Shown one piece after another: positions 2,511 to 63,406 of a stretch of 64,000 nucleotides of DNA. Under the pieces are notes generated by a model that made no database searches, had not been told where the DNA came from, and saw only the letters and a program-made list of their open reading frames with translations. Position numbers and translations under genes: made by a program. Position 1 is the stretch's first letter. Every line of letters starts with the position of its first letter. The stretch is from the NCBI GenBank assembly GCA_964016885.1, contig CAXHJY010000386.1, forward strand, positions 14,115 to 78,114. The letters are read 5' to 3'. This DNA is from Eledone cirrhosa (taxonomy: Eukaryota).

Positions 2511-2769
2511 GTGTAGATCACCAAACAATAGGGAGGCTGTCATGTCTTTTACAGCGTGTACTGGGTGCATTAATGGTTGGGAAGACCTACAGTTGTGTCA
2601 AAGATATGACAACCTCTCCTCTGCACTAGAGAGAATGTGAGACCGTACATAAGCGAAACACAGATCCCTGGTCTGTTTGGGAGGTCAGTTGCCCCACTTC
2701 AGCACTGGCTTTGTCAATGTAGACCCGTCCAATCCTTGCGAGAAGGGATAGCGGACGTTAAAACGTACA

Positions 2770-4146
2770 TACAGGTTGGTGCCCACCAGGGCTCTGTTCT
2801 TAGCCCTCTCCTGTTCATCATAGTTTTGCAGGCAATAACAGAGGAGTTTAAGACCGGATGCCCATGGGAACTCCTGTATGCAGATGACCTCGCACTTATA
2901 GCTGAATCTATGGTAGAACTAGAGAAGAAATTCCAAACATGGAAACGGGGACTAGAAAGAAAGGGTCTCAAAGTCAACCTGACAAAGACTAAGGTCCTTG
3001 TAAGTAGACGAGAAAACAGAACCCAGATCCCCTCAGAGAAATGGCCTTGCTCATTGTGTAGGAAAGGTGTAGGTAGCAACTCCATTCTCTTCCCCAAATG
3101 CAAACAATGGGTACACAAGAGATGTAGTGTGATCTCAGGAAGCTTAACTAAGAATGTAGGCTTCACATGTAGCAGCTGTGCTGGGACAGCAAGCAGCAAA
3201 CAGCCACAGGAAACAAGCACCACCAAACTCTGGGAGGGCTCTGTAGAAACAGTAGACAGCTTCTGCTACCTAGGTGACCAAATTAGCAGCGGAGGTGGGT
3301 GTTCGGAAAGTACAATAACTAGGGTAAGAACGGGATGGAAGAAGTTCAGGGAGCTACTGCCACTGCTAGCTGCAAAAGGCTTCTCCTTCAAAATGAAAGG
3401 CAGACTGTATGATGCGTGTATACGAACATCAATGTTACATGGTAGTGAGACCTGGGCGCTGTCTGTAGAAGACTTGTGTAGATTAGAAAGAAACGAAGCC
3501 TGCATGCTCCAATGGATGTGTAATAGTAATATACGTGAACGGCAAAGCATAAACGAATTGAGAGAGAGACTGAACATAAGAGGAATCAAATGGTGTGTGC
3601 AGGAGAGGCGGTTGCATTGGTATGGACATGTGATGCGTATGAAGGATGACAGCTGCATAAAAAGGTGCAGAGCACTAGAAGTCGATGGAAACCGCGGAGT
3701 GGGGAGACCCAAGAAGACCTGGGATGAGGTGATAAAAACTGACCTTACCCAATTACACCTCTCAAAGGTGATGACACACGACCGTCACCTCTGGCGTCAC
3801 GCAGTAATACAGAAGACCCGACCCCCCATGAGTACAAGCCGAAGCTGAAGCATATAGACAATATACCCCCACACCCTCCCACTGCAAAATGGTCGTGGAG
3901 GTGCCACGGCAAAAAAGCACCCAGCCCACACTGTAAAGTGGACGTGTAGGCACCACGGAAAAAAAGCACCCACCACTCACTGTAAATGAGGCTTGTGTTA
4001 GGAAGGGCATCCAGTTGTAGAAATCAAGCCAGAATCAGTTCCCGTATGAGCAAGACATGGTCAGCCGACTGGACATTGCCCACAACAGGACAACCCGTCT
4101 AACCCATGCTAGCGTGGAAGAACAGACGTAAAACGGTGATGATGAT
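2770..4146 (+). mobile_element. 5'-truncated RTE-clade LINE (RT C-terminal part, stop at 3848, 3' UTR, (GAT)n tail)
   Basis: QGSVLSPLLF, LLYADD, FCYLGD, LHGSETW, RLHWYGHV, GRPKKTW motifs; the 3' UTR ends gacgtaaaacggtgatgatgat. Confidence 0.92.
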
Positions 4147-10753: not shown

Positions 10754-13093
10754 ATCATCATCATCATCATCAACGTTTAACGTCCGTGTTCCACGCTTGC
10801 ATGGGTTTGGACGGGGGTAGTCCCACTTGAGGCAAGAGTGATTGTCTTGCTCGCATAGGACTGTCTGGCAGGTTTTCTACAGTTGGATGCCCTTCCTAAC
10901 ACCAACCACATTTACAGTGTGGGTCTGGGAGGTTTTTACCGTGTTGCCTACACGGCCACATTACAGCGTGGACTGTGTGTTTTTTTGTCGTGACACCTAC
11001 ACGATCTCGTTTGTTTCGGCCTGGATGGCGCGGCACCAACATAACTTTACATGGAACGGGGTGGTGTGGATGGGGTGGGGGTGGTGGCTGGACGGGGTGT
11101 AGTTTGTTAGAGATGCCTACTGGCAAGGCGGGTCTTCTCTGTTACTGAGTACCGCCAAAGGTCACGGTCCAGTGACATTGTCTTGGAGAGGTGTAAGTGT
11201 ATGAGGTCGGAGTTTATCAGCTCATCCCATGTTTTTCTAGGTCTGCCTATTCCGTGGCTACCGTCTATCTTTATTGCCCTGCACTTTGTAATACAGCTAT
11301 CGACTTTCATGCGCATCACGTGTCCATACCAACGCAGCCTTCTCTCGAGTAAACAACATCTGATCCCTCTTAGTTCGTTTATGCTTTGCCGTTCACGTAT
11401 ATTACTGTTACACATCCAGCGGAGCATGCAAGCTTCGTTCCTCTCTAGTCTGCGTATATCCTCTGCACACAATGCCCAGGTCTCACTACCATGCAACATT
11501 GCTGTTCGTATGCAGGCATCGTACAACCTGCCTTTCATTTTTATGGAGAACCCTTTAGCAGCTAATAGTGGTATAAGCTCTCTGAACTTTTTCCAACCAG
11601 TTCTGACTCTAGCTACAGTACTTTCAGAGCACCCTCCCCCACTGCTGATTTTATCGCCCAGGTAACGGAAGCTGTCCACTATTTCTATAGAACCCTCTGC
11701 GCAATTGAAAGAGCTAGTATTTTGTGGGCACTTGCTGCTACTTATTGCACCAGAACATCGGCCACATGTAAAGTCTATGTTCTTAGTTAGCTTACCTGTG
11801 ATCCCACTACATCTTTTATGCACCCATACTTTGCATTTAGGACATAAGATGGAGTTTCTACCTACGCCTTTCCTACATACCGAGCACGACCATTTCCCAG
11901 AAGGGACCGCCGCCTTGTTTTCTTTCCTACAAACTAGAACTTTGGTCTTAGCCAGGTTAATTTTAAGTCCTTTTGACTCTAGGCCGTGCTTCCATGTTTG
12001 GAATTTCTTCTCTAGCTCGGCCATTGATTCCGCTATGAGTGTCAGGTCGTCTGCGTATAGGAGTTCCCATGGGCAGCCTGTCTTGAACTCCTCTGTTATA
12101 GCCTGAAGGGCAATAATAAATAGTAGGGGGCTGAGAACAGAGCCCTGATGGACGCCAACTTTTACGCTAAACTCTTCACTATATTCGTTGTTAATTCTAA
12201 CCTTGCTGACTGTTTCTTTATACATGGCTTGTATAGCCCTCACAAGCCATTCGTCAACGCCTAGTTTTCTAAGAGCCCACCAGATAATGGAGCGGGGGAC
12301 TCTGTCGAAGGCTTTCTCCAGGTCGACAAAAGCTAAGTAGAGGGGTTTACCTTTAGCTAGGTACTTCTCCTGTAGTTGTCGTACTATGAAAAGAGCGTCT
12401 GTGGTGCTTTTGCCTGACACAAACCCGAACTGCATTTCATCTAGATCAATTCTCTCTCTGATTAGTTGCGCTATTACTTTTTCCGTGACCTTCATGACCT
12501 GGTCGATTAATTTAATGCCTCTATAGTTACTCCTATCTAGGGCGTCTCCTTTACCCTTATAACAGTTAACGATGATGCTGCTATGCCAGTCCTTCGGAAC
12601 AACCCCATTCTGTACGACTTGGTTAACTATGCGGGTGACCATGGTGTGTCCCACCGTGCCAGATGCCTTCAGCATCTCAGCAACTATTTCCGAAGGCCCA
12701 GCCGCCTTACCAGTCTTCATATCCTTGATTGCCTTACTTATTATACTCCCCTCGACTAACACTGCTGGTCCCTCTATCGGGTCGATATGGGGGAGACTGT
12801 CTTTCTCCCATTTATTCTCCTCATTTAGTAGCCTTTCATAGTGACACTTCCAAGCTACCTTCTTATCAGTGTCGGTGATGGCAAGTATGCCATCATCGTT
12901 AAGTACACACTTCTCCCCGACAATATCACGGTTTTCCTTGACGCATTGCCTGGCAATCCTGAACACCTCACGTTTTTGGTCATCGCGTTGTAGAACATGC
13001 TTGAACTTTCTTTCCTCCGCTTCCCTTCTTGCTAAGTACACTTCTCTCCTAGCTTCCCTCCTGGCCACTTGATAGTCTACTCTACTTCCCCCA
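10754..13093 (-). mobile_element. 5'-truncated RTE-clade LINE with uninterrupted 653-aa RT ORF (11107-13068); endonuclease domain absent
   Basis: NYRGIKL, QFGF, FVDLEKAFDRVP, GVHQGSVLSPLLF, LLYADD, a Cys/His cluster, LRWYGHV and GRPRKTW; 3' UTR and (GAT)n tail at 10754. Confidence 0.95.
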
Positions 13094-13116
13094 TAGAGTA
13101 GACTATCAAGTGGCCA

Positions 13117-13295
13117 TATATATATTTATATATATATATATTTATTTATATATATATATATTTATTTATATATATATATATTTATTTATATATATATATA
13201 TTTATTTATATATATATATATTTATTTATATATATATTTATTTATATATATATATATATTTATTTATATATATATATTTATATATATATATGTAA
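13117..13295. repeat. (TA)n array with TTTA interruptions
   Basis: Direct reading of the sequence. Confidence 0.9.
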
Positions 13296-14055: not shown

Positions 14056-14390
14056 ATATATATTTATTTATTTATATATATATATTTATATATATATATA
14101 TTTATTTATTTATATATATATATTTATTTATATATATATCTTTATTTATTTATATATATATCTTTATCTATGTATATATATATCTTTATCTATGTATATA
14201 TATATTTATATATATATATTTATTTGTGTTTATATGTATATATATGTATATATATATTTATATATATATATTTATTTGTGTTTATATGTATATATATATA
14301 TATTTATATGTACATATAAATATTTATTTATATATATATGTATTTATAAATATTTATTTATATATTTATTTATATTTTCATCTTTTCCAG

Positions 14391-14632
14391 TCTCTGCCCT
14401 CGGGCCTCCACCTTCCTATGACTCAGTTATGCAAGGTGATGCCTACTCCTATGGTCCCGCGCCACCACCACCACCACCACCACATGGGATTTACCAGCCA
14501 ACTCCCCCATACCCACAACCACCTGGTATTATGGGGAGCCCTTATGGCCCACCAAATATTGGCTATCCATCGTATGGAATGCCACCCCCACATGCAGCAT
14601 CACCTGTGGTAGTGGCCCCAACAACAATCATT
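14391..14632 (+). CDS. Coding exon 2 of the proline-rich PPxY protein ([14 protein letters not shown]...VVVAPTTII)
   Basis: Acceptor ttttcatcttttccAG, donor GTAAGA; P/G/Y-rich open frame containing PPSY. Confidence 0.85.
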
Positions 14633-14685
14633 GTAAGACATTTATTTTGTTAGTTTTTTTAACATTTGTTTTTTTTATTTATTAA

Positions 14686-17360: not shown

Positions 17361-17901
17361 TATTGTTATACTTTGGGAGGGTCATGTTACCAATAAGAAA
17401 CACACGTACCAGTTGCTTTCACTTCAATTTATTATAATAAATTTATAAATTTAGGAATTTATAAATTTCTGGTTGGTTGGTTGGTTCCACAACCAGATAT
17501 TTGTTTATATATTGTCAAAGTTCTTTCGTCACACATTCTATGACCTCTTCAGTGACTGGGGATTCTTTTCTTTGTTTTTGTGTCTCTCCTTTGTTCTGTC
17601 CTACGCCACACAGAAACAAAATGGCGTAGGACAGAACAAAGGAGAGACACAAAAACAAAGAAAAGAATGCCTGTCACTGAAGAGGTCACAGAATGTGTGA
17701 CGAAAGAACTTTGACAATATATAAACAACTATCTGGTTGTGGAACCAACCAACCAGAAATTTATAAATTTATTATAATAAATTGAAGGGAAAGCAACTGG
17801 TGCGTGTGTTTCTTATTGGCAACATGACCCTCCCAAAGTATAACAATATCGGTTTCAACACACGATTTCAGATAAAGAATCTTGCTAAACAAATTCAGAA
17901 A
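17361..17901. mobile_element. Palindromic (arms about 240 bp) Penelope-type terminal-repeat element
   Basis: 17361-17608 is inverted to 17622-17849 around a 13-nt loop; each arm carries a hammerhead-like motif. Confidence 0.75.
17672..17716 (+). ncRNA. Candidate minimal type I hammerhead ribozyme
   Basis: TGTCA-CTGAAGA-G-GTCACA(gaatg)TGTGAC-GAAA-GAAC-TT-TGACA: stem I 5 bp, stem II 6 bp, minimal stem III, one extra G after the core. Mirror copy on the minus strand at 17514-17556. Confidence 0.6.

Positions 17902-24348: not shown

Positions 24349-24350
<2 letters not shown>
24143..24350 (+). mobile_element. Family-A SINE
   Basis: Same consensus as 8222-8412. Confidence 0.8.
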
Positions 24351-24391
<41 letters not shown>

Positions 24392-24426
24392 TATAAGTAT
24401 TAATAAAATAGATGTTCTTTTGATCA

Positions 24427-24489
24427 ATTACATTTTATTATACATATTTCGGATGTACAACAGTACGTCCTCATCAGACAAAATATAAT
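24427..24489 (-). ncRNA. Candidate type I hammerhead ribozyme (best-formed in the window)
   Basis: Minus strand reads ATTATATTTTGT-CTGATGA-GGACGTAC(tgtt)GTACATCC-GAA-ATATGTAT-A-ATAAAATGTAAT: 12-bp stem I (2 G-U pairs), stem II 7 of 8 paired, near-palindromic stem III, AUA triplet. Confidence 0.72.
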
Positions 24490-24823
24490 GATACATGACA
24501 TACCCTGAGATGTTAAATGGTTAAGATTTAATCAAGGTAGTGATTACATAATCATCGAATATTGTTTAACAACTTAATACTTATATATATATATATATAT
24601 GACAAGTATGTATGTTTTGAAACAGCAAGCGAGTTTGAAATTAGAAACAGCTTTTGCCACATTTTTTTTTACTAAAGAAATTTTAGCCTGACATAGGAGT
24701 CTAGAACCCTCCAAGAAATAGAAAAAAATGAGTATTGACACATTTCCATTTCTTGGAGGGTTCTATGCCTCACTGACGGGCTAACATTTCTTTTGCCACA
24801 AAAATGTGGCAAAAGCTTCTGTT

Positions 24824-27809: not shown

Positions 27810-27960
27810 AAATATATATATTCAATGATATTAAATAAATGGAAACTATATTTATAAAACCATATTTATTCTATTGTATATATTTCAAGGTTACCAAAAC
27901 TTTGGTACGCTCTCATCAGATAAAATACAAAGTTTGTTTTATAAATACTGACATAACCAG
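27810..27960 (-). mobile_element. Putative pseudo-LTR of the Penelope-like element, with a degenerate hammerhead
   Basis: Minus strand tattttatCTGATGAgagcgtaccaa...ttggtaaccttGAAAtatata; lies 3' of the PLE ORF; solo copy at 42195-42330 (+). Confidence 0.65.
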
Positions 27961-28949
27961 GAAAGAATAAGCTTGAGGTATAGGGCTAAAAAAAACGTAG
28001 GAATGGTGGAATATGATTCCAGAATTTAAAAATTATTTAGCTATATTATGAGTTATAATATTGTATATATAATCAATTAGATTATATGAAGAATTATGGT
28101 TGTAAGTACATTTTATCTTATTACATTACAACAGGTTGTAAGTATATAAATATCTATATAGATTAATAATTGTGCATGTATAAGTATTATTGTTGATTTT
28201 ATAAAAATAGAAATAAATCACAATTATTAATTCTTTACATTTCTCATATGAGTTACGAAGGATGTTGATTTTGCATTTTACATTAAAAAAAAACACGTAG
28301 TTCAAGTTGTAAGAGGAGAACAATTTGTAGATTCAAATATTTTGTTCCAACATTGAAAATGTTTTCAGAATATTGTTAATTTAGCAAAGTTATATAGTTT
28401 ATCATACATATTATAATGTTTGTTTGCTCAATTGAAAAGGAAAAGATAACTCCAATCTTGTTTGCTAACCGTTAAATTTGATGAATGATTTACTCAGAAA
28501 ATATGTAGAGAAAATTAAATATTATTTTATGTGAGATTAATTTTTCCAAAGATGAAAGTTTCAATTATATATTATTTTAGTCAAAAGATGTGTGAAAAGT
28601 TTGAAGATCAAAGAAGAAAAAAAAAAGTATTGTGCATTTCGAAGAACTATCGTAAAGAGGATAACTTTCAGAATGTCAATTAAAGATTATCAATCTACAT
28701 CTAAAAAATAGATTTAGAGGAGTATTATTAAGAAAATAATGTCAAATAGTAAAAATATTAAAATTAAGAAGGAAGATCATTTAAAAAAATGTTAATTTTT
28801 AAAGAAATACTCAGTAAATAATAGGATCATTTTAAAGGTGTATAACTATAGTCAAGTGTAATGAATATCATAAATTAAAAATACTTCTGAAAGTGGAATT
28901 TTGGCGATGTCTGCAACTAGAAAATAATTCTGTTTTAAGATTAATAGAG

Positions 28950-30935
28950 TTTTGACAGTTAATTATATAAAAATCTCCTCGATACACAAGTGACAGATTC
29001 TTGAGAAAGCCATATTTCAGTATGCAGGTGCTTTCAAAATCGTTCCCCAAGATATTGAATTAGTCTATGTTGTTGTCTTTTAAATTCCAAATTAAATGTG
29101 AAAGTGAAGTGGAAGATTTTTTATCGGACCTATTAAATGTATGTTTATGGTTGTACCAGCATTCTTTGAATTTTGTAGAAGTGGCACCAATATAGTTATA
29201 TATTTTGTCTCTAGTTTTAACTGTGCATTTATAAATTACGTTTTTGTCTAAGCAATTATTTTGTAAAGGGCAGTTTGATTTAATTCTACAGTTACATTTT
29301 CTGGAGTTGTTGTTATTAGGAACGGTACTATTATTATGAATATTGTTGTTAGAAATATTATTATTGTTATCTTGGTTTGTTTGGTTAGGGTTTAAATTTA
29401 AGTTTCTATTATTAATTCTATTTATATTTTGAGCTATGTTCATAGTAGTAGAGTAGGATAGTTTTATACTGTGTCTGTTAAAAATAGAGTGGTATCTGTG
29501 GGCTTTAGGAAAACACTTATCTAGTACTTTAAAAAATAGCTTTGCTAAAGGTGTTTTAACGCCTAATGAGAATGGGGGAGAGTACCAAATAATATTTCTA
29601 GTTCTAGTTTTTTTGTTTGGTTTACTATTTAATTTGAATTGTTTATTGTTATTATAATAAATTCTAGGATGATTTATCATGTTATTGTTATCTATGTATT
29701 TAATTTTATTCGAGTTATCCTCCTCTATGTAAAGCCTCATTGTAATATTCTGCCTTATCATCAAAAATATTTTTATTAGCAGAGATGCGTGAAATCCATT
29801 GCTGGACGCTATTGACAATAGTGTTTTTTTATATTTCTAGGATGATTAGAATTGAAACTTACGTAATTTAGATTTTCGTTAATTTTATGGAATGGATGGT
29901 AAAGATCTGAGCTAAGGTTTAAGGTTACATCTAAGTTAACGATTTTGTAATTATTCTTGATTTCTAAATTAAGGTTGTAGTTGTTGAAAAATTGTATTAT
30001 GGATTTCTTTTTCCTATTAATTTCACTATTGCTTTGGTTTTCAATTAAAAGTAACATATCATCACGATATAAACCTCCGGTCATCTCGAGCATTTTTCTA
30101 TGCAGTACATTATTAATAAATAATCCGAGGTCCATTACTTGCGCTGAGTCAGATGATCCCATAGTGATATCAAAATTGTTTTTTCTGTCGGCTCTTGTCC
30201 AGAGATGATTATTAAATTCTATTAGGGTTTTACGTGCTGTTAGAATTATATTCATTTCTTCACTAAATAGGTCTGTATGTTTAGAAGCGTAGATAAGTGC
30301 CTTATTAAGTAAGCTAGGGGTAATAGAGGAGTAGTAATTTTGAATATCCATTTGAATGAATTTTTTCTTATGTTTTAATTTTATGTTATTAAACCAATCT
30401 ATTACTTCATTAGTACCATTCCATAGTTTAAGGTGTGATTTTTCTTTAAGTAGTGGTATAATTCTATCTAATATATGTTTGCTATGTAGGGGCTCCCAAA
30501 GGAGCACTGAGTGCAATGTCAACTCTGGATGTCGGTGAGCATGTCCAGCCAACCTCATGGCAGCGATAATGAGGGACAGAGACCGCTGGAGAGAACTCGT
30601 CCATGGATCTCGGGAATTTTACCCGCCTTAGATAGATAGATATGTTTGCTAATTATGCCTAAGTCAGATTTAGATGGTGCGATAGTCTGACTGGTAGTTC
30701 AATTTCAAAATTTCTTTTGTGGTCCTTCAAGTTAATCTTCGGTTTTCTGGGTATAAAGGGTTCAGCCCTATTTTGAATGCCTAATTTATAAATAATTTCC
30801 AAAGCTTCCCTATTTAAGGTTGAAAGATCTTCATTTGATGTCATTTTGTAGTTTTTCCTGAGTTCTTTCAGTATAAGGTTATTATATTCGTCCTTTTCCA
30901 TACCATATAAATTATTTGTTTTGTCAGATTTTATT
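28950..30935 (-). mobile_element. Penelope-like retroelement (RT plus GIY-YIG), frameshifted and interrupted
   Basis: QMDIQNYYSSI, FDITMGS, GLYRDD and WYSPPFS motifs, the CNCR..CPL..NC linker and VIYKC...YIGAT (GIY-YIG), spread over ORFs 30659-30901, 29809-30558 and 29060-29818. Confidence 0.92.
30485..30639. mobile_element. Short RTE-like insertion with 5' inversion inside the Penelope RT
   Basis: 12-bp TSD ATATGTTTGCTA (30473-30484, 30640-30651). The minus part encodes RLAGHAHRHPE..VLLWEP; the plus part encodes MRDRDRWRELV..* followed by (TAGA)n. Confidence 0.85.
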
Positions 30936-31274
30936 TAATATCATTGAATATTATACTCCAGAAAACTTGAGTGCTTTGAATCAGTTATAAACATTTATAT
31001 TTGTTGAATTACCAACAAATTGAACATCCCTTTTGCTTATATACATATATATATATATATATAACATACAAAAAAACTATTTTTCCTTAAACGATATATC
31101 AGTATTCTTCTTGGTATAAGAACCACCATGAAGACTGCTACTGCTGCTAATTAAATAAAATGGGATTTGTTAAAGACATTTTTTGTTAGTGTCTCTTGTT
31201 TGTTAATTCTTTTGTTCTTTGATACAAAGCTGAATATTTTAAAAGTATTTATCATCACCATCATCATCATCAGT

Positions 31275-34074: not shown

Positions 34075-34292
34075 AGATGGTGTAGGGCAGAACATAGGAG
34101 AGAGACAAAAAAAAAAAATACCTGGTCACTGAGGAGGTCACAGAATGTGTGACGAAAGAGCTTTAATAATATATAAACCATCCGGTTATCCAACCAACCA
34201 ACCAACCGGAAATTTAAAATAAATTGAAGTGAAAACCAACAGGTGCATATGATTTTATTGGCAGCATGACCCTCCCAAAGTGTAACAATATA
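34075..34292 (+). mobile_element. Single arm of the hammerhead-bearing Penelope-type repeat
   Basis: ggtcaCTGAGGAggtcacagaatgtgtgacGAAAgagcttt, with flanks matching 17622-17849. Confidence 0.7.
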
Positions 34293-37307: not shown

Positions 37308-38219
37308 TCACAAGAATTTGATACCAGATTCTGAGATAGAAAAATAAAGAGTTTTCAAATCCATATTTGTCATACAAAACTTGGTTTCTGTTGCAGTTTT
37401 CGTAAAAATCAACCGTTTGCTAACAAAATTTTCCCACACTTTATCCAAATATTTTATATGAGACCGCTTAGCTGTTGATGAATAGGTAGTTGGGCTGTTT
37501 ACAGTATTAGGATTAATGATATGATTGTTATTATTAGTTGTAGTAGTATTTTGGGGGTCGGTGTATTTTGGTTTGAAGATGAGTGATTTGGTGGCTATAA
37601 CAAAGATATTTAAGTCGTTAACAAATTTCTTGAGTATTTTTGTAACTCTGCGTATGTTGAGGCCCTGGGTGCTGAAGTTATCGTTGGCACCACACCTGTC
37701 CAGCCAATAAAACGTTGATATGCTGTCGATAACCAACAAGCAGAAAGTAACATCGGTTGTCAGTTGGTATTCGAGGCTGTGCAAAGTGAGAAACAACTGC
37801 CATGAACTTGAACAGTAGACAATATAGACACGTTGGAGACAGTCGTCTGTGAACAACTGTATTTCTGATTCTAGCTTGCCGACGCTGCTCTCCCCATCAT
37901 CATTACTTGGCGATGACAATTCACTGAAATGAGGCTGAAGAATTTCGGTAATTTTCTTCTCCAAGATGAGAACGAGTCTCAAAATGGAAAACTTGTAATC
38001 AGTGCTGATAAAAATGACTTTCAACTCAGGACCATTCACAGGAACATTTTTCCAAACTTTTGGCAAAACACATCGGACAATTAAATTGAGCAAGACTTCA
38101 GTTTTCCCAGTTCCTTCTTCTCCAAAGAATTCTAGGATTTCTCCACTGCTTGACCTCTCCCCAAATAGTTCCGGAGCAACATTGCTCAAGGATTCACGTG
38201 TGCCAAGCCGAGCCAGAAG
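37308..38219 (-). CDS. XRCC2: DNA repair protein XRCC2 (RAD51 paralog), coding exon 2
   Basis: Acceptor tttcttcttcAG; LLARLG..; Walker A GEEGTGKT; Walker B LLVIDSISTFYWLDR; FISTDYKFSILRLV is an XRCC2-type motif. Confidence 0.95.
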   Translation of the reverse strand, partial: LLARLGTRESLSNVAPELFGERSSSGEILEFFGEEGTGKTEVLLNLIVRCVLPKVWKNVPVNGPELKVIFISTDYKFSILRLVLILEKKITEILQPHFSELSSPSNDDGESSVGKLESEIQLFTDDCLQRVYIVYCSSSWQLFLTLHSLEYQLTTDVTFCLLVIDSISTFYWLDRCGANDNFSTQGLNIRRVTKILKKFVNDLNIFVIATKSLIFKPKYTDPQNTTTTNNNNHIINPNTVNSPTTYSSTAKRSHIKYLDKVWENFVSKRLIFTKTATETKFCMTNMDLKTLYFSISESGIKFL

Positions 38220-38691
38220 CTGAAGAAGAAATAAAAACGAAAAAACCCCATTATTTTACATTATAAAAGGGAGCTGGATTGGCAGTGTTGGACAAATCCT
38301 GCCTGGGTTAACTTTACCTTTCATCCTTTCAATTCTGAAAAATAATGTATCAGTTACATACTCGAGTTGGTACATGCCAAGTCATACTCGCTATATTTAT
38401 ATATATATATATATCGAGTTTCAGATGATCCCACTTATGAAAGCAGAAATTCATTGCTTAAACTTTTAATCTGTACTAATAATAAATATTTGGTCTACGG
38501 GTTTATATATATTTATATACATATATATATACAACCTTTATCGAGTCCTCTTTGGATTTTGGTCATTGTATTTATTATTAACTTTGCCTTTCATCCTTAT
38601 GGGGTCGATAAAATAAAGTATCAGTAATGTACTGGGTAATTGCTGGTCTTGTGCCAAAAGTACAAACAATTATTATTATTATATATATATA

Positions 38692-42046: not shown

Positions 42047-42139
<93 letters not shown>

Positions 42140-42224
42140 CAAAGGGATATTTAATTATCCAGGAAAAACGTGAACCGTTAAGATCTCGTTCCTGAATATG
42201 TCAATATTTATAAAATAAACTTTG

Positions 42225-42285
42225 TATTTTATCTGATGAGTGCGTACCAACATTTTGGTACCCTTGAAATATATATAATAGAATA
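42225..42285 (+). ncRNA. Degenerate type I hammerhead in a solo Penelope pseudo-LTR
   Basis: TATTTTAT-CTGATGA-GTGCGTACCAA..TTGGTACCCTT-GAA-ATATATAT-A-ATAGAATA; the base of stem II is mismatched. Confidence 0.55.
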
Positions 42286-42689
42286 AATATGGTTTTATAA
42301 ATATAGTTTCCATTTATTAATATCATTGATATATACACACATATATATATATATTTAATACATTATCAGAGAAAGCTTTAAGCAATACTCCGACCGACTT
42401 CCTTAGTATAATCCCAATTATACGTTTGGGGTGCTAACTATACGTATTTTGAGGATAGTCAGTTGTATTATTTTATATTAGACATAATTAAATACACCCC
42501 TCTTTCCAAACGATCGTTTCATTATAAGTTTTCTACAAGTTGGGAAAATAATTGTTTCTACTTTTGGCACAAGGCCAGCAATTACCCAGTACATTACTGG
42601 TTGGGAAAATAATGTCCAGGTTATGTAGAAGCCTCCACATAGTCTATAGGAATATATGCAGGTGGGCACTTACAAATCATCAGGGATTT

Positions 42690-47489: not shown

Positions 47490-63406
<15,917 letters not shown>

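Follow-up and report, generated by a model that had tools for sequence, protein, structure and literature searches.

A likely inert hammerhead ribozyme of Eledone cirrhosa is very probably a terminal-repeat piece of an abundant Penelope-like retroelement, in a two-armed (TA)n insertion probably made by two-site priming and run-off

Hammerhead ribozymes have been known from the repeats of Penelope elements since 2014 and from the Hydra clade of these elements since 2021, and their solo copies, inverted pairs and one-sided tail, as well as the Hydra clade itself, are already published. The published Penelope hammerheads share a type I layout, a long stem II, a G10.1-C11.1 closing pair and a palindromic stem III, and mostly occur as solo copies of truncated elements or as inverted pairs 100-700 bases apart. 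Those of metazoans cleave weakly even as dimers (PMC4209133). Elements of the Hydra clade, among them Hydra-1_Obim, insert into (TA)n and carry a type I hammerhead in their repeat; their protein has a C-terminal GIY-YIG domain, a DKT motif, a CxCx5C linker, and CxxC and CxH motifs around E and N, and the elements are generally <3 kb in length (Craig et al. 2021, PMC8557442). In vitro, the Poseidon element PAc of the green anole, a member of another clade, uses two internal reverse transcription start sites that define its tail, nicks and extends both strands of AT-rich targets, and takes uncut RNA as its main template; the start sites are within its ORF, and its ribozyme, which overlaps the start codon, depended on protein and could be dispensed with for insertion (Frangieh et al. 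2024, PMC11167929). The pLTR of Pen2a from Adineta vaga has a TATA box ~20 bases before a TCACT initiator-like site, and the element occurs as solo pLTRs and also with a pLTR in inverted orientation and a tail at one end; solo repeats were attributed there to recombination or deletion and inverted ones to antisense self-priming (Arkhipova et al. 2013, PMC3846280). A Penelope-type element of flies has a TATA-less internal promoter (PMC2377424). Non-LTR retrozymes, finally, are tandem arrays of non-coding monomers whose type I hammerhead derives from Penelope repeats (bioRxiv 10.64898/2026.07.22.740005).

We examined a 64,000-nucleotide stretch of the Eledone cirrhosa genome (the window), which carries a hammerhead motif on the minus strand at 24427-24489. 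The features listed above for published Penelope hammerheads and for the Hydra clade recur in this motif and in the family to which it belongs, with the exceptions given here. In comparison with published Penelope hammerheads, stem I is longer (12 pairs), stem III is an 8-base palindrome, there is no extra base between A9 and G10.1, stem II has a conserved internal C x A or C x C mismatch, and variation between copies is very low. The N-terminal and RT motifs of the family's protein are by eye colinear with those of the Hydra clade, and by eye there is no CCHH motif; in place of the clade's RWK the family has RWR in 5 of 9 translated starts, the other four being point variants. The element is ~4.1 kb long because of a ~1.6-kb 3' UTR, against the clade's tendency to stay below 3 kb, its tail has ~100 bases rather than 30-40, and it is present in thousands of copies with clear inverted repeats. 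Its hammerhead sequence is unlike the one listed for Hydra-1_Obim of octopus in PMC8557442, and the family therefore differs from that element. Unlike in PAc, it is the 5' UTR that contains the two start sites; ~100 bases separate them, and at the end of each a TA-like stretch blends into the target. The TATA box and TCACT layout is like that of Pen2a in kind. Unlike the retrozymes, the motif is a solo piece of a coding element. In a literature search whose scope left out most subscription papers and Repbase, we found no report of this family, of its end-pairing or of its 5'-end counts.

All parts of a type I hammerhead core (C3-A9, G12-A14, A15.1-U16.1 and an NUH triplet) are present in the motif, both by sequence and by descriptor (Table 1). 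The initial annotation, made from the sequence alone, had described a well-formed minus-strand hammerhead with intact CUGAUGA and GAAA, a 12-bp stem I, a stem II paired at 7 of 8 positions with a closing G-C, a near-palindromic stem III and an AUA cleavage triplet. Each of these particulars was borne out, as was the statement that no ORF explains the motif, since no stop-to-stop frame of >=120 aa overlaps 24427-24489. Positions given with a sign are counted from C3 of the core (window position 24477) along the minus strand, so that the predicted cut falls between +38 and +39.

Table 1. Coordinates of the hammerhead motif and of the two-armed island in the 64,000-nucleotide window.
Feature	Position	Strand	Details	Basis
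Type I hammerhead ribozyme motif, dimer type by predicted fold	24427..24489	-		Sequence, fold, descriptor versus shuffles, sister-family covariance model, pair counts across two families
Stem I	5' strand 24489-24478, 3' strand 24438-24427	-	12 pairs, two G-U	
Core	CUGAUGA 24477-24471; GAA 24450-24448	-	Second part of core extends to 24447	
Stem II	24470-24451	-	7/8 pairs, C x A mismatch, closing G10.1-C11.1, 4-base loop	
Near-palindromic stem III segment, AUAUGUAU	24440..24447	-	Predicted inter-copy pairing, 8 pairs, two G-U	Two-strand minimum-energy fold
Predicted cleavage site	24438..24439	-	After A17 (24439) of the AUA triplet	Hammerhead numbering on sequence
Short arm (pLTR)	24387..24547	-	161 bases, from -68 to -70 to the near 3' end site at ~+90	Query 40-200 identical in long family copies; end classes among 100 copies
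Long-site arm, inverted relative to short arm	24546..24583	+	Final 38 bases of the ~100-base tail (+158 to +195)	Query 1-41 matches tail end of long copies, opposite strand
(TA)n target tract, short-arm side	24350..24386	.		Tandem repeat table
(TA)n target tract, long-arm side	24584..24601	.		Sequence
Predicted 5' hairpin	24501..24539	-	Homologous hairpin in sister family	Folds; RNAalifold base helix with changes on both sides
Position -64, peak of family-copy 5' ends	24541	-	Initiator-like TCACT; putative transcription start	Copy-end counts
Predicted competing hairpin	24388..24450	-	Absorbs stem III, cut site and 3' strand of stem I	Stem I pair probability

Could such a motif have arisen by chance in AT-rich DNA? 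Stems I and II form when the 63-mer is folded, but the single-strand score is modest (z = -2.5; 1 of 200 shuffles equally good), and Rfam returned no match for the motif at the gathering score or at E up to 10, both of which would suit a chance match. However, the hammerhead descriptor found three sites in the real window and none in any of 200 block-wise dinucleotide shuffles. The covariance search that failed with Rfam succeeded with a model built from 13 copies of a sister family only, the motif's own family being left out: 24427-24489 scored 50.9 bits (E ~2e-9), and the best unrelated match reached 18 bits. Across the two families, 92.5% of cells in the stems are paired, two stem II pairs are changed on both sides, and the stem I differences preserve pairing, although covariation support for the stems is limited because only two lineages are compared. 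Moreover, a hammerhead motif was already published for this class of elements. The shuffles, the pair counts and the sister-family score refute a chance origin, which we regard as vanishingly improbable, and we conclude on sequence grounds that the segment is a real, well-formed hammerhead ribozyme sequence.

The motif sits in a 200-base island that the initial annotation had correctly placed between two (TA)n tracts. The island is a complete two-armed insertion in (TA)n, its arms joined head to head through a 2-base microhomology (24546-24547), and because of this arrangement both of its outer ends are element 3' ends. Insertion into (TA)n is a trait of the family. The short arm begins 4-6 bases upstream of the -64 peak and lacks the TATA box that long copies have 30 bases upstream of -64. 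The 64-kb window holds no other copy of the same family's core, an absence that concerns the island copy and does not extend to tandem elements, and the tandem repeat table lists no tandem array at the island. The annotation had also called the island unique, which is wrong at the scale of the genome: its exact 39-base core has 1,396 matches (697 on the plus and 699 on the minus strand; control 0), the 32-base stretch immediately 3' of the cut site has 2,822, and the 161-base arm is letter-identical in nine other fetched copies. When the 3.0-Gb genome was searched with the whole 200-base island, 667 candidates came up; we scored 40 of them and obtained 51 matches. The family is young and very abundant. 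The earlier description of the island as a remnant terminal repeat stands insofar as it is a pLTR piece of a Penelope-like family, and fails insofar as it implied a decayed remnant.

Walking upstream from long copies through the ~1.6 kb of AT-rich UTR led to a reading frame with RT motifs, the CxCx5C linker and a GIY-YIG-type endonuclease, as judged by inspection; its protein motifs comprise RWR, DKT, CxCx5C, CxxC and CxH. Copies attached to such an ORF, which the annotation had proposed to look for, are thus present: the hammerhead repeat is linked to the frame in loci L054-L058 and L211-L221. L058 is near full length at ~4.1 kb and consists of an inverted arm, hammerhead, tail, reading frame, UTR and repeat, and the tail continues into the same frame-start region at eleven further loci. 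The order along the near-full-length element is TATA box, -64, hairpin, hammerhead, tail of ~100 bases, frame with RT, CxCx5C and GIY-YIG, 3' UTR and again repeat. With a repeat flanking a single RT and GIY-YIG frame, partial tandems, an inverted truncated arm and an optional tail, the family has the architecture of an endonuclease-bearing Penelope-like element. Stops or frameshifts break the frame in all family copies seen, and Pfam gave no RT or GIY-YIG match on five frames of this and the sister family. The marks of the Hydra clade are carried by the element, whose placement relies on motifs. Next to a family copy, L060:7834-9051 (+) holds another kind of Penelope-type frame, which has a CX4CxxC linker and matches GIY-YIG in Pfam.

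These linkages bear on whether the island could be a non-autonomous retrozyme or hammerhead SINE, mobile as a unit of its own. Short copies do predominate, with 64 of 100 starting within 130 bases upstream of the core, and animal retrozymes reportedly derive from Penelope repeats (bioRxiv 10.64898/2026.07.22.740005). Against such a unit, the island copy has no tandem array, the sequence runs on into the 3' UTR and 5' UTR of the coding element, and the junctions vary between copies. Since linkage to the reading frame largely refutes the retrozyme or SINE reading, we consider it highly improbable; the hammerhead island is almost certainly a terminal-repeat piece of the abundant Penelope-like retroelement.

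The window holds five further intact-looking hammerhead motifs from two other families and one decayed motif. At 27819-31045 (-) lies a decayed sister Hydra-type Penelope element with an inverted tail arm, a broken RT/GIY-YIG frame, a 3' UTR and a hammerhead at 27919 in which U16.1 is changed to C. Its amino-acid identity to the island's family is 62% in the RT part and 47% in the linker and endonuclease part, which agrees with the earlier proposal that the island belongs to a separate family. The sister family shares the anatomy of the island's family, and its hammerhead start has 3,442 genome matches; the closing pair of its stem II is usually G-U. A solo sister-family repeat with an intact hammerhead at 42233 is located at ~42137-42331 (+), and a decayed relative with an altered CUGANGA box, scoring 36 bits with the sister model, at 63104-63177 (+). 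In the third hammerhead family stem I is short and a base bulges out ahead of stem II; the family is represented by a head-to-head pair, 17552 (-) and 17677 (+), in a palindromic (TA)n insert at 17363-17900 and by a further copy at 34129 (+).

To characterize the copy ends, we sampled the first 100 matches on contig C1 that were exact to the anchor +48..+79. Because this anchor sits downstream of the cut site, the sampling is unselective for the core. All 100 sampled copies fall into two classes by 3' end, 62 of them short (~+90) and 38 long (~+190), and the ORF leader appeared in the 12 letters past the 3' end in none of the 38 long-class copies. Among head-to-head pairs with both arms sampled, 15 of 16 combine one long with one short arm (expected share 0.47; P ~1e-4 if the arms are independent), and the island copy shows the same combination. 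Judging from these ends, paired priming at two sites is likely.

The 5' ends are also unevenly distributed. Among the 64 copies starting at most 130 bases upstream, 16 start at -64..-62 (1.1 expected if uniform), 29 at -71..-54 and only 6 at -129..-72, while none starts at +31..+47, around the cut site (6.1 expected). Both arms of insertion L112 are ambiguous and could start at the cut site. At ten further junctions, which overlap with copies already counted, the opposite arm ends near -64. Genome counts show the same step: a 33-mer from -64 has 1,250 matches, which fall to 760 with four more bases upstream and to 1,140 with four more downstream, and polymorphism does not explain the drop to 760 because the four upstream bases are present in 19 of 22 long copies. 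At two loci (C1:231754509-231754574 and C1:202313409-202313475) head-to-head copies are joined at -64 exactly or one base apart. Position -64 is the A of TCACT, and TATAWAWR stands at -31/-30 relative to it in 28 of 40 long copies (one copy without the landmark was dropped); these are mostly three sequence variants, and the count amounts to few independent observations because the copies are related. Of eight junctions exactly at -64, none has a clear extra G of the kind a cap would leave, the three that have a G being explicable by the flank. In the sister family, 17 of 30 5' ends fall at -93..-66 around the homologous site and none at -94..-242. The homologous hairpin follows the pile-up there, but by eye no TATA box lies 30 bases upstream, which argues against a transcription start at -64. 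A splice acceptor at the sister-family pile-up was rejected, as the AG is by eye not kept among variants. On the copy ends, we slightly favor -64 as the transcription start.

The end pattern suggests that uncut RNA was copied from two start sites up to the transcript 5' end. We propose that the element's endonuclease would nick both strands of a (TA)n tract and that reverse transcription of element RNA would be primed by each nick, at the near site (~+90) from one and at the far site (~+190) from the other. The two cDNAs would then join head to head through microhomology, so that every insertion would have a short end and a long end. The stop of many arms at -64 likely reflects the 5' end of the transcript, in which case uncut RNA copied to its end would directly yield solo repeats. 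Cleavage would require a ribozyme dimer and would probably be slow or helped by protein. In vitro results on the anole Poseidon element offer a parallel for two internal start sites, nicking of both strands and an uncut template (PMC11167929), and the copy ends point to direct two-site priming with run-off where the Pen2a paper invoked deletion, recombination and antisense self-priming (PMC3846280).

Alternatively, -64 might mark, instead of a transcript start, a stop or switch imposed by structure at the base of the 5' hairpin, or a nicked site in the element's own repeat, with longer-than-unit transcripts or ribozyme-made circles as templates. The hairpin starts at -62 and is kept in both families, and the TATA box is not. 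Copies that contain the frame start also speak for longer templates: 9 of 12 reach >200 bases upstream of the core, through a long upstream UTR, and only one starts near -64, so many templates did not start there. A circular template has been proposed for Penelope elements (PMC4209133); circles made by ribozyme cleavage and ligation would account both for the partial tandems and for the lack of copies that begin at the cut site. Head-to-head repeats, moreover, were read as products of antisense-RNA self-priming by Arkhipova et al. 2013 (PMC3846280). However, a polymerase blocked by an RNA hairpin is expected to stop at the hairpin's 3' base (~-24), where there is no peak, and the TATA box survives at canonical spacing in three variants, in a layout with TCACT like that in the rotifer Penelope repeat (PMC3846280). 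Self-priming alone does not predict one long and one short end per insertion. We therefore view a stop point or circular template as rather unlikely, and return to two-site priming with run-off.

As a whole, we consider it quite probable that the motif is a repeat piece of an abundant Penelope-like element with Hydra-clade motifs, likely inert in a two-armed (TA)n insert made by two-site priming and run-off. A broader reading is more tentative, and we rate its chances at a little under even. It holds that the copy ends record Penelope insertion in vivo, with paired priming at two RNA sites ~100 bases apart on uncut RNA and run-off at a 5' end set by the TATA box and initiator. Solo and inverted pLTRs would then be run-off products and not the outcome of deletion or antisense self-priming, and the 5'-UTR hammerhead, held off by the competing hairpin, would be a cap-removing switch that insertion does not need.

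With respect to activity, folding predicts a ribozyme of the dimer type, whose unstable palindromic stem III pairs between copies. Closing stem III within one molecule costs energy by computation (-9.4 kcal/mol closed, -12.2 open), and the minimum-energy fold of two 63-mers is a double hammerhead (-30.4 kcal/mol, compared with 2 x -13.8, or -27.6, for separate monomers). The flanks change this prediction: the stem I pair probability is 0.92 in the 63-mer, 0.03 in -64..+92 and 0.14 with wider flanks, and ranges from 0.35 to 0.9 in long-tailed copies. The annotation's suggestion that the motif is cleavage-competent as a dimer thus finds support in the predicted fold of the isolated 63-mer, but not in the copy's own flanks, where a competing hairpin is predicted and the window offers no partner of the same family.

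The alternative is that the ribozyme of the island copy is active or has been co-opted, and cleaves a host or read-through transcript in trans with another family copy or with the sister motif at 27919, which is located 3.4 kb upstream on the same strand. The intact core of the island copy matches the commonest sequence of the family letter for letter, the genome contains >1,000 potential partners, the isolated dimer fold is favored, and on paper cross-pairing between the two families is feasible for stems I and III. Nevertheless, the lowest-energy heterodimers with 27919 and 42233 are non-hammerhead folds, the 27919 motif has the U16.1 to C change, the native flanks are predicted to form the competing hairpin, and the copy lacks a TATA box; the published metazoan hammerheads, as noted above, are weak even as dimers. 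Nor is there a sign of separate selection on the island copy, because it is young and letter-identical to others. We judge activity or co-option very unlikely. The island copy is likely inert and silent, since it has no TATA box, no same-family partner in the window, a predicted competing hairpin and unfavored cross-family dimers.

Across the family, the core is intact in 59 of 71 copies and is slightly, though not significantly, more conserved than its neighbors (0.94% versus ~2%, P = 0.16), in a gapped alignment that includes indel-bearing copies. The stem II mismatch is C x A in 50 of 73 copies, C x C in 21 and C x T in 2. We rejected CpG decay of the island copy as its source, given that none of the 73 copies pairs at this position, which makes the mismatch a family trait. 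In a subfamily of ~21-23 of the 73 copies, stem II closes with G-U and carries the C x C mismatch, approaching the stem II of the sister family, and stem I contains a U x U.

Several host genes and other repeats share the window. A proline-rich exon with splice sites at both ends is located at 14390-14633 (+), and a search for later exons was negative; should the gene extend across the island, the hammerhead would lie antisense within one of its introns. A single-exon frame at 37308-38255 (-) matches Pfam Rad51 and is presumably XRCC2-like. Exons of a RING and WD40 gene lie at ~49590 and 61700-62520 (+); from their motifs we take them to be COP1-like, and the pieces tried gave no match in Pfam. 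A 5S rRNA-like sequence at 48840-48935 (+) (Rfam 46.7 bits) is probably a pseudogene or a SINE head. Two related LINE reverse transcriptase frames occupy 11107-13125 (-), which has RVT_1 and a PHD-like insertion, and 2610-3848 (+).

While the motif itself is ordinary, its family is a test bed, being young and represented by well over 1,000 near-identical copies, alongside which the genome harbors an independent sister family. Counting where its copies end gives answers to questions posed in the Penelope literature: the origin of inverted repeats, that of the one-sided tail, and whether the template of reverse transcription is also a substrate of the ribozyme. The long-short pairing rule would carry the anole in vitro result into a genome and into another clade.
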